Shown piece by piece: positions 4,440 through 8,868 of a stretch of 18,202 nt of DNA. A model generated the notes under the pieces. It saw nothing but the letters and a program-made list of their open reading frames with translations. It was not told where the DNA came from and did no database searches. Position 1 is the first letter of the stretch. The number at the start of each line of letters is the position of its first letter. This DNA is from a virus (taxonomy: Duplodnaviria; Heunggongvirae; Uroviricota; Caudoviricetes): positions 1-18,202 of IMG/VR virus record IMGVR_UViG_2617270976_000013; one strand, given 5' to 3'. A program made the translations under genes and the position numbers.

Positions 4440-4594
4440 ACACTCTCCCGTTTATTATTTATCTCCTCAGCCAGCCGCTGGGCTTTCAGCGGATTTCGGA
4501 TAACAGAAAGGCCGGGAAATACCCAGCCTCGCTTTGTAACGGAGTAGACGAAAGTGATCGCGCCTACCCGGATATTATCGTGAGGATGCTTCAT
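4436..4594 (-). CDS. small protein (52 aa), lambda orf60a-like position immediately downstream of exo
   Basis: ATG overlaps the exo stop (ATGA) and its stop overlaps the ATG of the 250-aa gene (ATGA); product [52 protein letters not shown]. Below the ORF track length cutoff. Confidence 0.5.
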
Positions 4595-5271
4595 CGCCAT
4601 TGCTCCCCAAATACAAAACCAATTTCAGCCAGTGCCACGTCCATTTTTTCGATGAACTCCGGCACCATCTCGTCAAAATTCGCCATGTACTTTTCATTCC
4701 GCTCAATCACGACATAATGCAGTCCTTCACGCTTCATCCGCGGGTCATAGTTGGCAAAGTACCAGGCATCTTTTCGTGTCACCCACATGCTGTACTGCAC
4801 CTGGGCCATGTAAGCCGATTTTATGGCCTCGAAACCACCGAGCCGGAACTTCATGAAATCCCGGGAGGTAAACGGGCATTTCAGCTCAAGGCCATTGCCG
4901 TCACTGCATAAACCATCGGGAGAGCAGGCGGTGCGCATACTTTCGTCGCGATAGATGATCGGGGATTCAATAACATTTACGCCGGAAGTGAACTCAAACA
5001 CGGTTCTGGCGTCGTTCTCGTACTGTTTTCCCCAGGCCAGCGCTTTAGCGTTAACTTCCGGAGCCACACCGGTGCAAACCTCAGCCAGCAGGGTGTGGAA
5101 GTAGGACATTTTCATGTCAGGCCACTTCTTTCCTGATCGGGGCTTTGCTATCACGTTGTGAACTTCTGAAGCGGTGATGACGCCGAGCCGTAATTTGTGC
5201 CATGCATCATCCCCCTGTTCGACAGCTCTCACGTCGATCCCGGTACGCTGCAGGATAATGTCCGGTGTCAT
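4591..5271 (-). CDS. exo: lambda-type 5'-3' exonuclease (Red alpha)
   Basis: 226-aa product [40 protein letters not shown]... matches lambda Exo along its length; ATGA overlap with bet. Confidence 0.95.
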
Positions 5272-6053
5272 GCTGCCACCTTCTGCTCAGTGGCTTTCTG
5301 TTTCAGGAATCCAAGAGCTTTCACTGCTTCGGCCTGTGTCAGTTCTGACGATGCGCGAATGTCGCGGCGAAATATCTGGGAACAGAGCGGCAATAAGTCG
5401 TCATCCCATGTTTTATCCAGGGCGATCAGCAGAGTGTTAATCTCCTGCATGGTTTCATCGTTAACCGGAGTGATGTCGCGTTCTGGCTGACGTTCTGCAG
5501 TGTATGCTGTATTTTCGACAATGCGCTCGGCTTCATCCTTGTCATAGATACCAGCAAATCCGAAGGCCAGACGGGCACACTGAATCATGGCTTTATGCCG
5601 TAACATCCGTTTGGGATGCGACTGCCACGGCCCCGTGATTTCTCTGCCTTCGCGGGTTTTGAATGGTTCGCGGCGGCATTCATCCATCCATTCGGTAACG
5701 CAGATCGGATGATTACGGTCCTTGCGGTAAATCCGGCATGTACAGGATTCATTGTCCTGCTCAAAGTCCATGCCATCAAACTGCTGGTTTTCATTGATGA
5801 TGCGGGACCAGCCATCAACGCCCACCACCGGAACAATGCCGTTCTGCTTATCAGGGAAGGCGTAAATTTCTTTCGTCCACGGATTAAGGCCGTACTGGTT
5901 GGCGACGATCAACAATGCGATGAACTGCGCATCGCTGGCATCACCTTTAAATGCCGTCTGGCGAAGAGTGGTGATCAGTTCCTGTGGGTCGACAGAATCC
6001 ATGCCGACACGTTCAGCCAGCTTCCCTGCCAGCGTTGCGAGTGCTGTACTCAT
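5268..6053 (-). CDS. bet: lambda-type single-strand annealing protein (Red beta)
   Basis: 261-aa product [66 protein letters not shown]... matches lambda Bet. Confidence 0.95.
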
Positions 6054-6058
6054 CCGTT

Positions 6059-6355
6059 TTATACCTCTGAATCAATATCAAACTGGTGGTGAGCAATGGT
6101 TTCAACCATGTACCGGATGTGTTCTGCCATGCGCTCCTGAAACTCAACATCGTCATCAAACGCACGGGTAATGGCTTTTTTGCTGGCCCCGCAGCGTTGC
6201 AAATGATCGATACAGAGTGATTCAAACAGGTGCTGTGGAAGACCTTTTTCCATGTCGTCTGCCAGTTCTGCCTCTTTCTCTTCACGGGCGATCTGCTGGT
6301 AGTGACGTGCCCAGCTCTGAGCCTCAAGACGATCCTGAATGTAATAAGCGTTCAT
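6059..6355 (-). CDS. gam: RecBCD inhibitor Gam (short, GamS-like form)
   Basis: 98-aa product [47 protein letters not shown]... matches lambda Gam; SD AGGAG 8 nt upstream. The in-frame upstream extension has a stop and no ATG. Confidence 0.9.
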
Positions 6356-6431
6356 GGCTGAACTCCTGAAAATGGCTGTGAAAATATCGCCTGCGAAATG
6401 CCAGGCTGATTAGGAAAACAGGAAAGGGGGG

Positions 6432-6590
6432 TTAGTGATTCAGGCCGTTACCGCGTCCGTCGAGAAAAACTTCCACGAGCAAATCACGGGTATAAGTGCG
6501 CTCGATGCCGCGATGCAGATATAGCCGTCCGCGTAAATTAGCTGATGCAGTCCAGGTACCATCTTTGTGTTTGACCAGCATTCCTGGCAT
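6432..6590 (-). CDS. small ORF (52 aa) in the kil/cIII position, function unknown
   Basis: ATG at 6590 preceded by GAGGTG (5-nt spacer); product MPGMLVKHKDGTWTASANLRGRLYLHRGIERTYTRDLLVEVFLDGRGNGLNH; below the ORF track cutoff. Overlapping alternative ORFs exist in other frames. Confidence 0.35.
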   Translation of the reverse strand: MPGMLVKHKDGTWTASANLRGRLYLHRGIERTYTRDLLVEVFLDGRGNGLNH

Positions 6591-6899
6591 GACCGCACCT
6601 CAATTAACGGTCTGCATTCCGTAATGTTGATGAACCATAAAAACTCCTGCCCGTAAGCTGGGCTGCTGAACATATAGAGACTTCTGCGCGTATTCAGGCG
6701 GTGGATGGCCGCCGGTTGTCATAACTAAGCCGCCTCGTTGAAGCGACTGAGGTATGAAATGTTGAGTTAATTTCAGCTGGTCACACCGACGTTCACGCGT
6801 CCGTTTCACCCCTCGCACTCCCCGAAGCCTGCTGAAATTCAAACTGCGGATCTAAGCGGTCATCGCAACGGTGAATCAGGTAGTTGCCGTATCGTTGTG

Positions 6900-6990
6900 T
6901 TGTTGCGATGAACTTATTTAAAACTACAGTTGTTTTATCGTCAACAACAAAAGTTGTTTTATTGGTTGTTTTAGATATAACTGGTTGTAT
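6900..6990 (-). promoter_or_regulatory. putative leftward early promoter and operator array (pL/OL-like)
   Basis: Minus strand reads TTGACG, 17 nt, TTAAAT; overlapping repeats of TAAAACAAC/GTTGTTTT in direct and inverted orientation (plus strand agttgttttatcgtcaacaacaaaagttgttttattggttgtttta). Confidence 0.4.
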
Positions 6991-7085
6991 TTAGGATGGA
7001 TTTATTTTGTGACTTGAATCGCATAGCGATAACTGAAGCGAGGTTATGGTGGTTTTTTTAACGGTGTGTGTGATGAGGGGGGGGG

Positions 7086-7113
7086 CAAAAGAAAACCCGG
7101 CACGGTGACCGGG
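7086..7113 (-). terminator. putative intrinsic terminator downstream of the repressor gene (minus strand)
   Basis: GC stem cccgg (7096-7100) / ccggg (7109-7113) with an 8-nt loop; on the minus strand followed by TTTTCTTTT and then a C9 tract (plus-strand G9 at 7077-7085). Confidence 0.4.
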
Positions 7114-7234
7114 ATTCTTACGCCGTTAGGTAAAGATATTATTGCGGTGGCTTAATATTACTACCTAGAGCAAAGATAGGAATTAGTTCTTTACTGAATG
7201 AGCACAATGCCCAGTTGATAATTTTTAATTGGTA

Positions 7235-7924
7235 CTACCCATGCTTCCTATATGTCTGCGGCATGCTCCCAATAACCTTACCGAAGATGAACACCCGGTT
7301 CATCTCGTCTTTCTCGATCGGGTCCCACGGTGAGTAGCTTTTGTTATCAGAGATGACCAGCAGCTTATCCTTCATCATTTGCAGGCGCTTTACATGGGCT
7401 GTGTCGTCGTACAGAAACGCATAGATACCATCACCGTCGAAAGATTTAACTGTGATATCAACGAACAGCAGATCACCTGGTTCGATCGTTCCTGACATGC
7501 TGTCACCACGCACGTTAATGATGCGGATATTTTCCGCCTTCCTACCATCGAACATGTGACGAGCATCGTCAAACGAGTACTCAACCGAGCGTAGAACTTC
7601 TACAAACTCACGGTTGATGACTCCCGGCCCAGCACTGACTTCTATATCAAGAACGTCAATCTTGAAGTATTTGGAATGGCTGACAGTTGATTGTATTGGT
7701 TGCACTGTACTGTCTGACATATTTCCAACGCCAGAAGATAACCATTCTGCGCGCACACCCAAAGCGTTCGCGATCTCCACGATTTTAGTTGTTTGATTAG
7801 CTTTCCCTGTTTCGATTTTCTGAATAGCAGCCTGGCTAACCCCGACCAAATCCCCAAGCGCCTTTTGTGTAAGGCCTCGCGCTAATCTGGCTTCTTTAAG
7901 TCTTTCTGAGAGTGTTGTTTTCAT
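7235..7924 (-). CDS. cI: CI-like prophage repressor, HTH plus S24 (LexA-type) peptidase domain
   Basis: 229-aa product MKTTLSERLKEARLARGLTQKALGDLVGVSQAAIQKIETGK... with C-terminal GDSM and VKRL (Ser/Lys dyad context). Start chosen at ATG 7924 (not 7990) to leave a 105-bp operator region; no SD, consistent with a leaderless mRNA. Confidence 0.9.
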   Translation of the reverse strand: MKTTLSERLKEARLARGLTQKALGDLVGVSQAAIQKIETGKANQTTKIVEIANALGVRAEWLSSGVGNMSDSTVQPIQSTVSHSKYFKIDVLDIEVSAGPGVINREFVEVLRSVEYSFDDARHMFDGRKAENIRIINVRGDSMSGTIEPGDLLFVDITVKSFDGDGIYAFLYDDTAHVKRLQMMKDKLLVISDNKSYSPWDPIEKDEMNRVFIFGKVIGSMPQTYRKHG

Positions 7925-8028
7925 AGTCCAAATGTACAACCAAGGTTTTATTCCATCAAACGAAAATGGTTGTTGACTAAAAACAACCATGGTTTTAATC
8001 TTGATTCAAATTAACCACGGAGGTTGTT
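7925..8028. promoter_or_regulatory. divergent promoter/operator region (OR, pR, pRM-like)
   Basis: Three operator-like sites sharing AACCA/TGGTT half-sites (caaccaaggtttt, aaaatggttgttg, aaaacaaccatggtttt with perfect palindrome aaccatggtt). Rightward TTGACT (7973-7978) then TTTAAT; leftward TTGATG, 17 nt, TACATT ending about 7 nt before the repressor ATG. Confidence 0.55.
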
Positions 8029-8259
8029 ATGAACCCAGCTATCAAAACAGCGATCAATATCGTTGGTTCACAAAAGAAACTGGGCGCTGCTTGCGAAGTT
8101 TCACAGCAGGCCGTCTATAAGTGGCTTCACAACAAAGCAAAGGTATCCCCTGAACATGTCGGCAGCATTGTTACGGCTACTGGTGGAGTAGTGAAGGCAT
8201 ACCAGATTCGCCCGGATCTTCCGAAGTTGTTTCCACACACCGAAAAGAACGCAGCTTAA
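8029..8259 (+). CDS. cro: Cro-like HTH regulator (YdaS-like)
   Basis: 76-aa product MNPAIKTAINIVGSQKKLGAACEVSQQAVYKWLHNKAKVSPEH...; SD GGAGG 5 nt upstream; divergent from the repressor across the operator region. Confidence 0.85.
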   Translation: MNPAIKTAINIVGSQKKLGAACEVSQQAVYKWLHNKAKVSPEHVGSIVTATGGVVKAYQIRPDLPKLFPHTEKNAA

Positions 8260-8271
8260 ATTTCCATTTCA

Positions 8272-8284
8272 CGCTCTTTAACAA
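8272..8284 (+). promoter_or_regulatory. boxA-like element (nutR-equivalent position)
   Basis: CGCTCTTTAACAA, 12 nt after the cro stop, closely matching the boxA consensus (CGCTCTTTA / rrn TGCTCTTTAACAA); no convincing boxB hairpin follows. Confidence 0.5.
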
Positions 8285-8328
8285 TAAGCAATCAACTTAA
8301 CAGTCAATTCAAACTAAAGGAGTCAATT

Positions 8329-8868
8329 ATGCAACCACTTACATACCAACAGACTAGCGGATTTAGCCCGACTGCGGTGATAAATCGTTCTCAAACAAAA
8401 CAGGTGCCAGGCCACGAAAAGATCCGTGATGCCGTCCGCGCCTGGTCGGCTGTAGATAATCAGGATGTCGTTGCCACACTCATTGTGAATGAGTATCGGG
8501 AGCAGGGCGGCGGCACCATCGATTTCCCTGATGATGTCAGCCGTGCACGCCAGAAGCTGTTCCGCTTCCTCGATAACAAATTCGATTCTGAAAAATACCG
8601 AAATAACGTGCGTGAACTGACCCCGGCAATTCTGGCGGTACTACCGCTGGAATATCGCGGTTACCTGGTTGAGCAGGATAGCTTCATGGCTAGGTTGGCT
8701 GAAATGGAAAAGGAACTCAGTGAGGCAAAACAGGCTGTCATTCTCAACGCACCACGCCACCAGAAACTGAAGGAAATTAGTGAAGGTATTGTGTCGATGT
8801 TTCGTGTGGACCCAGATCTGGCTGGTCCATTGATGGCGATGGTTACTACCATGCTGGGGGCGATATGA
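8329..8868 (+). CDS. CII-position regulator, YdaT-family
   Basis: 179-aa product; segment ARQKLFRFLDNKFDSEKYRNNVRELTPAILAVLP resembles Rac YdaT ARNTQKIFRWVEKDTPDAVEKMQALLPAIEKSMP; strong SD AAGGAG; follows cro as cII does in lambda. Confidence 0.7.
   Translation: MQPLTYQQTSGFSPTAVINRSQTKQVPGHEKIRDAVRAWSAVDNQDVVATLIVNEYREQGGGTIDFPDDVSRARQKLFRFLDNKFDSEKYRNNVRELTPAILAVLPLEYRGYLVEQDSFMARLAEMEKELSEAKQAVILNAPRHQKLKEISEGIVSMFRVDPDLAGPLMAMVTTMLGAI

Follow-up and report, generated by a model that had tools for sequence, protein, structure and literature searches.

The window, by which we mean the whole 18,202-nucleotide stretch analysed here, is a lambdoid prophage integrated beside a tRNA-Thr(CGT) gene (1369-1444). 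Its minus strand carries int (1459-2622), exo, bet and gam (4591-6355; Pfam Gam match 2.2e-63) and kil (ORF 6432-6590), which matches phrog_294; the Kil family match is confined to this minus-strand ORF and covers profile positions 29-80 of 83, and the frame and length of kil are annotated inconsistently among relatives (6432-6673). Further along lie the repressor gene cI (7235-7924, minus strand, 229 aa), the divergent cro gene (8029-8259, plus strand), a cII analogue of the YdaT type (8329-8868) and then the replication genes. An intrinsic terminator downstream of cI (7096-7113, minus strand; stem CCCGGTCACCGTGCCGGG then TTTTCTTTTG) separates the transcript of the repressor promoter PRM from the leftward promoter pL. 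Both positional claims of the initial annotation hold: the operator array is about 245 bp downstream of the end of the cI ORF at 7235, and upstream of the early-left genes, with kil, gam, bet and exo following on the minus strand.

The immunity regions of phages PhiR34_1 and Turner are near-identical to this one (99.5% identity), and at least 80% of region 6850-8050 is present in at least 1049 of 5426 complete E. coli genomes; the same immunity type was also found in prophages of Klebsiella, Enterobacter, Kosakonia, Providencia and Symbiopectobacterium. The interval between cI and the leftward operators (6990-7235) is a cargo hotspot, empty here (245 bp, terminator only), and in relatives with the same or a related cI (loci L003-L009) it holds HipA-like, GevT/GevA, lipoprotein, RexAB, BstA or ParA-like genes; for this defence-gene hotspot, the position of pL and its operators sets the boundary. 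Several minor features lie in the same interval. Directly past the tail of the cI terminator is a run of nine G (7077-7085; nine C on the minus strand), a homopolymer of variable length that is shorter in the hetero-immune phage 4A7, and the flanking DNA common to 4A7 contains a perfect palindrome, ATCGC-TAT-GCGAT (7021-7033), and, on the plus strand, a weak hairpin with T7 after it (7029-7058).

CI combines an N-terminal helix-turn-helix domain (Pfam HTH_3, 6.5e-13) with a self-cleaving C-terminal domain (Peptidase_S24, 1.5e-18), and its translation contains an Ala-Gly pair (SAGPG), GDSM with the Ser, and HVKRL with the Lys. Because the Ala-Gly pair, GDSM and the conserved Lys are all present, the sequence implies that CI would undergo SOS-inducible self-cleavage. 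In a phmmer search of the PDB with the N-terminal domain, the closest solved structure was the 434 repressor (1per_L, 4.5e-9), and 434 Cro was also matched (2.7e-7). The alignment with the 434 repressor is gapless over 64 residues (434 residues 2-65) at approximately 37% identity. Gln31, Gln20 and Arg13 of CI correspond to Gln28, Gln17 and Arg10 of 434, while the equivalents of 434 Gln29, Gln33 and Arg43 are Ala32, Lys36 and Thr46; thus, of the base-contacting residues Gln28, Gln29 and Gln33, only the first is retained (as Gln31). Since Gln29 and Gln33 are replaced by Ala and Lys, CI resembles the 434 repressor in its fold and in the geometry of its operators but differs from it in specificity. 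The CI recognition helix is VSQAAIQKIETGK. Cro belongs to the YdaS family (Pfam YdaS_toxin, 4.1e-17), with a match to P22_Cro below threshold.

Between cI and cro we found a tripartite operator region that overlaps both divergent promoters, a layout kept in seven genera. OR3 (7936-7949, ACAACCAAGGTTTT) overlaps the PRM -10, OR2 (7960-7973, ACGAAAATGGTTGT) has one strong and one weak half, and OR1 (7983-7996, ACAACCATGGTTTT) lies between the -35 and -10 of the rightward promoter PR; the spacing is 24 bp from OR3 to OR2 and 23 bp from OR2 to OR1. PR consists of TTGACT (7973-7978), 17 nt and TAATCT (7996-8001), and PRM, on the opposite strand, of TTGATG (7959 to 7954), 17 nt and TACATT (7936 to 7931). 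OR2 is at about -42 of both promoters, with 42.5 bp between its centre and the cI start codon, where PRM transcription is also predicted to begin; this is the lambda geometry for activation.

Relatives in GenBank annotate cI as 251 aa (7235-7990), and a start at 7990 would fall inside OR1. From the PRM -10 to the ATG at 7924 there are six variable bases in six of seven lineages and seven in Providencia, and no Shine-Dalgarno sequence precedes this ATG; alignments with cI homologues begin at residue 1 or 2 of the 229-aa version. These alignments, together with the conserved PRM geometry lacking a Shine-Dalgarno sequence, indicate that cI is a leaderless gene of 229 codons starting at 7924. With the consensus, the promoter positions and the predicted leaderless start defined, annotators can correct over-extended cI starts.

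An operator-like 14-mer, ACCACGGAGGTTGT, was also noted at 8014-8027, 31 bp from OR1, with the cro Shine-Dalgarno sequence as its centre. Its outer positions are kept across lineages (ACAAC-CTCC-GT[GA]GT in the cI sense), and Providencia-like phages have a full AAAAC-CTCC-GTTGT at the equivalent place. Lying downstream of the PR start, it may be a weak fourth site.

Predicted leftward operators and promoter

The array was originally recognised from three direct repeats, GTTGTTTTA (TAAAACAAC on the minus strand), which we located at 6929, 6953 and 6965; there are exactly three in the 18.2-kb window, with none elsewhere. The inverted copy was likewise recovered, at 6943-6952 (AACAACAAAA), along with a second, weaker one at 6919-6927. 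The reading of these repeats as an operator array is supported, but the unit is a 14-bp palindrome rather than a 9-bp direct repeat: the TAAAACAAC repeats are halves of symmetric operators of the form ACAAC-N4-GTTGT. Two canonical operators are present. OL1 (6920-6933, AAAACTACAGTTGT; ACAACTGTAGTTTT on the minus strand) matches the symmetric consensus at 9 of 10 positions and OL2 (6944-6957, ACAACAAAAGTTGT) at all 10, with a centre-to-centre spacing of 24 bp, and the third and fourth repeats are lone half-sites, not full operators. OL1 is kept in both sequence and position across seven genera, and OL2 is also conserved across genera. The operator consensus is ACAAC-YA/TR-GTTGT.

The comparison with the cI-cro region suggested by the initial annotation bore out its expectation, with related sites recurring at 7936-7996. 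With at most one mismatch, ACAACNNNNGTTGT has five matches in the window, all within the two control regions, against an expected 0.64, and only 1 of 200 shuffles reached five; the fifth of these matches is the 14-mer over the cro ribosome-binding site (8014-8027). We also scored the window with a weight matrix built solely from the OR sites of six other lineages or genera, and hence independent of this DNA. Its top five sites were OR1 (21.1 bits), OR3 (18.0 bits), OL1 (17.5 bits), OL2 (17.0 bits) and OR2 (15.7 bits), and the best match outside both control regions scored 12.2 bits; for shuffled sequences the mean per-shuffle maximum was 11.5 bits, with 19.15 as the highest in any single shuffle. 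Over 70 halves, the half-site consensus reads A (100%), C (71%, C/a), A (90%), A (99%), C (90%), Y and A (83%), with a variable, A/T-rich centre.

Neither the matrix scan nor the consensus scan of the window found a third canonical operator at OL, so a lambda-style interaction between OL3 and OR3 is unsupported. Two candidates for OL3, at 6975-6988 and 6956-6969, were discarded, their right halves matching at only 2/5 or 0/5 positions. Two further GTTGT copies, at 6894 and 6899, just past the predicted transcription start, were not accepted as operators, since the leader DNA in which they lie is also present in the hetero-immune phage 4A7.

The minus-strand promoter hexamers are as they had been read from the sequence: a -35 of TTGACG (6944 to 6939), a 17-nt spacer and a -10 of TTAAAT (6921 to 6916). 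OL1 overlaps the -10 by 2 bp, and OL2 abuts the -35 with a 1-bp overlap. From the hexamer geometry, the start of pL is predicted at A6909, 7 nt after the -10, where other lineages have a conserved CAT[CG] motif. TTGAC stands at the equivalent position in all seven independently retrieved lineages, TT[AT]AAT is kept in all seven genera with the next base variable, and among 30 E. coli-lineage variants TTAAAT is invariant while the three bases that follow it vary. In phage 4A7 the corresponding promoter, TTGATA-17-TATTAT, is near-consensus and in the same register, TATTAT aligning base for base with TTAAAT.

A generic sigma-70 scan of 6400-8400 did not list pL and reported no promoter. The second position of sigma-70 -10 hexamers is almost always A, and the scan missed pL because TTAAAT has T in place of the required A. 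This T is a genuine oddity, and pL might be intrinsically weak or in need of an upstream element. The alternative -10, TAAATA (6920 to 6915) with an 18-nt spacer, is disfavoured, because lineages differ in its last base but agree in TTAAAT/TTTAAT; TTAAAT is preferred on account of its conservation in seven genera, its invariance in the 30 variants and the register of 4A7. An IHF site considered in the distal block was set aside, being a poor match to WATCAANNNNTTR as judged by eye.

Covariation of operators with the recognition helix

The proposal that a single repressor acts on both arrays is supported by all comparative tests, namely the shared motif, the covariation of operators with the recognition helix, and a natural block swap in phage 4A7. 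A genome scan with the CI N-terminal domain yielded five loci with the VSQAAIQKIETGK helix (Kosakonia, Enterobacter, Klebsiella grimontii, Symbiopectobacterium and Providencia), and all five have three ACAAC-type sites upstream of cI and, 0.85-3.3 kb downstream of its start, an array of two sites followed by TGAC. Among loci with the AQPTIWRL helix, the motif was present at the OR and OL places in 0 of 16. Conversely, when viral contigs were searched with the OL2-TGAC-OL1 pattern, 120 loci were recovered. In 90 of them a same-strand gene 0.9-3.2 kb upstream encodes a repressor with SQAAIQK[IL]E; the others are truncated by the end of the contig or have the close variants TQA[AS]IQKLE, and no mismatched repressor-operator pair occurred among the 120. 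Operator specificity thus tracks the recognition helix over 21 genome loci, 120 viral contigs and the 4A7 swap, where the compared lineages share ancestry and the conservation counts do not represent independent events. The Cro helix co-varies with operator type as well, being VSQQAVYKWLHNK here and VAQPTVWRWLHGG with the other type.

The CI of the hetero-immune phage 4A7 shows 81% overall identity, yet carries the other helix. The DNA of this phage is approximately 90% identical to the window in the flanks of OL and is replaced by a different block of about 95 bp exactly at 6912-7000, the only part of 6780-7200 that is non-homologous in the alignment. The converse is seen in Klebsiella phage ST101-KPC2phi6.1, where a CI with the same helix goes together with the same operators and promoter in unrelated flanks, and prophages of Klebsiella, Kosakonia, Enterobacter, Symbiopectobacterium and Providencia also keep the operators in unrelated flanks. 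The C-terminal domain of cI (7181-7790) has about 95% nucleotide identity with hetero-immune prophages (E. coli genome matches H84-H92). Because this domain is common to hetero-immune prophages, immunity specificity resides in two separate islands, one being OL and the other the cI N-terminus with OR and cro, and the two must be inherited together.

Taken as a whole, the locus has a repressor with HTH and S24 domains and an OL in which the OR motif overlies a leftward promoter, as in lambdoid switches of the CI type, and a 434-homologous N-terminal domain with a 14-bp two-fold operator, as in the 434 type. We consider it highly probable that 6916-6957 is the pL and OL of a lambdoid prophage, with OL1 and OL2 serving a 434-type CI and the same protein acting at OR1-OR3. 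Repressor binding and its cooperativity are here inferred from sequence comparisons. On this reading, CI dimers would occupy OL1 and OL2, probably cooperatively, excluding RNA polymerase and keeping kil, gam, bet and exo silent in the lysogen, and the same CI would also work at OR1-OR3, some 1 kb from OL. Repression would be lifted when RecA stimulates the S24 domain to cleave itself, and Cro would use OL1 and OL2 during lytic growth. The mechanism is ordinary and confirms the lambda/434 paradigm rather than challenging it; the only new element is the immunity specificity, which is very widespread and uncharacterised, and which comes with an OL of two operators and with lone half-sites in one orientation.

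Lone half-sites and competing readings

Upstream of OL2 are two minus-strand copies of the half-site ACAACCA. The one at 6963-6969, which starts 12 bp upstream of OL2, is the third direct repeat of the initial annotation, and the one at 6982-6988, the TAAATACAAC copy, starts 31 bp upstream; both are perfect 7-mer half-sites, and neither has an inverted partner. Among the 30 E. coli-lineage variants, the proximal site is the most variable element of the array (0.067 variants per column) and the distal site is nearly invariant (0.005 variants per column). A forward half-site is found at -30 to -32 in most lineage representatives and at -42 in the remainder. Within 100 nt upstream of OL2, 20 lineage representatives together have 36 forward half-sites and 0 in reverse, with offsets that cluster at -42, -31/-32, -21/-22 and -12, roughly one helical turn apart, and many lineages have ACAACCA-aat-AAAACCA, a 10-bp direct repeat. 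As both copies sit inside the immunity-specific block, we read the lone half-sites as probably being auxiliary, low-affinity contacts for the repressor that replace a canonical OL3.

The strict orientation, the clustered offsets, the 10-bp repeat and the near-invariance of the -31 site would all suit a reading in which the direct repeats are themselves the functional unit, with CI or Cro binding head-to-tail on A[CA]AACCA half-sites about one turn apart, so that OL1 and OL2 form part of a longer phased array in a filament-like or wrapped complex instead of lambda-style dimer pairs. We regard this as doubtful, since OR1, OR3, OL1 and OL2 are clear two-fold palindromes with lambda-like spacing of 23-24 bp, the closest structural relative binds as a symmetric dimer, and the -12 repeat is the most variable element; moreover, the lineages are related by descent, and unit-length indels free of function would give the same phasing. 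Another proposal accepts the palindromes and treats OL not as a shortened lambda-type array but as a distinct architecture, two palindromes plus half-sites in one orientation phased at approximately -12, -21, -31 and -42, which the weak site over the cro ribosome-binding site, 31 bp from OR1, would match. CI with a flexible linker (or Cro) would then place individual DNA-binding domains along one helix face, building a higher-order or looped complex unlike the lambda octamer or dodecamer, a scheme that is speculative and to which we give little weight.

Since AAA[AT] precedes each half-site, a AAAATAAAT block lies further upstream and the spacing is near multiples of 10-11 bp, the TAAAACAAC-type repeats upstream of OL2 could instead be phased A-tracts that bend the DNA upstream of pL, an UP-like or architectural element without protein specificity. 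However, conservation is concentrated in ACAACCA and not in the A-tract, the block is swapped together with the operators in 4A7, and the strict orientation bias fits an operator half-site, all of which makes simple bending improbable. It is very unlikely that CI is inactive at OL and that the sites serve Cro alone or a different regulator, for example the YdaT-like CII: sequence by itself cannot separate the two proteins, given that the Cro helix co-varies with the operators, but the CI helix does so equally well, Kil expressed from an unrepressed pL would be expected, by inference from lambda and Rac biology, to be toxic to the lysogen, and to our knowledge the operators of every lambdoid switch studied are shared by CI and Cro. 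Finally, that the array is a chance AT-rich repeat, or part of a small coding sequence without regulatory function, would draw on the AT-rich composition of the region and on a 36-aa ORF (6884-6994, plus strand) annotated as a CDS in phage Turner, but is effectively refuted by the motif statistics, by the immunity-linked replacement in 4A7 and by sites that are conserved across genera while the flanks and the reading frame are not.

Comparison with known switches and the pL leader

Operators of phage 434 are 14-bp ACAA-N6-TTGT sequences with an uncontacted centre that modulates affinity, as in PDB entries 2OR1, 1RPE, 1PER and 3CRO for the 434 repressor and Cro. The operators described here share the 14-bp two-fold form, the outer ACAA...TTGT and the variable, A/T-rich centre, but differ from those of 434 in having C/G at positions 5 and 10 (ACAAC...GTTGT). 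Also unlike 434, Cro is of the YdaS family and not of the 434-Cro type, OL has two full operators and not three, and the immunity specificity is different, with no classical phage in the collection exceeding 82% protein identity.

The resemblance to lambda extends to the divergent PR and PRM with three operators at 23-24 bp and OR2 near -42 of each, the leaderless cI with a terminator after its operon, the SOS-cleavable S24 repressor, and, some 1 kb from the first, a second operator array over a leftward promoter that precedes kil-gam-bet-exo. By contrast, operators are 14 bp here and 17 bp in lambda, the distance between OL and OR is 1.0 kb as opposed to 2.4 kb, there is no canonical OL3 and no recognisable N gene after pL, and the CII analogue is of the YdaT type.

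An OL of two sites without OL3 is shared with the Shiga-toxin lambdoid phage 933W, which was reported to lack an OL3 site and whose repressor was reported to bind OR1 and OR2 non-cooperatively (PMC5977221). The operator sequences of the two are unrelated, however, and lone phased half-sites are not described for 933W. A second parallel is CP-933P of E. coli O157:H7, in which YdaS and YdaT were shown experimentally to be analogues of Cro and CII, the repressor gene lacks a leader, the repressor operon is followed downstream by a PL-like promoter and its operators, and both direct and inverted repeats were noted in the operators (PMC8630535). The prophage in our window likewise has a pair of YdaS and YdaT types, a predicted leaderless repressor gene and a PL-like promoter with operators; unlike here, the CP-933P repressor PaaR2 is not of the S24 CI type, the repeat consensus is GTTTAGTAA in 18-bp palindromes, and the repressor operon has an embedded toxin-antitoxin pair. 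Searches of the literature for the operator strings returned only unrelated papers, and no description of these operators was found in the literature searched for what is a very common E. coli immunity group. The consensus should aid the prediction of hetero-immunity between prophages and supports the design of reporters and orthogonal repressor-operator pairs.

For the pL leader, we looked for elements of antitermination. No ORF between pL and kil matched the N family, and the leader had no Rfam match. An N-like function was considered for the 80-aa ORF at 6600-6842 (minus strand), whose N-terminus is Arg-rich, and found no support: it has no Pfam or PHROG match, and over part of its length it shares homology with non-coding phi80 DNA (6699-6759 matching the stretch just downstream of the N gene). 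A put-like antiterminator RNA likewise found no support, the fold of the whole leader being not unusual (z = -0.54) and a comparison by eye with HK022 putL giving no convincing overall similarity, the one shared element being a GACG...CGUC hairpin motif some 100 nt from the start of the leader.

Other lineages with the same operators have boxA-like sequences in their pL leaders (CGCTCTTTAA or TGCTCTTTAA), and, in the Providencia locus at least, it is followed downstream by an ORF that is apparently N-like and Arg-rich. In the window, a boxA-like sequence occurs in the right arm only, where CGCTCTTTAACAA (8272-8284) lies in the gap from cro to the YdaT-type cII gene and is not followed by any obvious boxB hairpin. 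A perfect 10-bp inverted repeat (6860-6869, TCATCGCAAC, and 6902-6911, GTTGCGATGA) would fold into a stem right where the predicted pL transcript begins; its arms are invariant and its loop variable in the 30 E. coli-lineage variants, and the repeat is also found in the hetero-immune phage 4A7.
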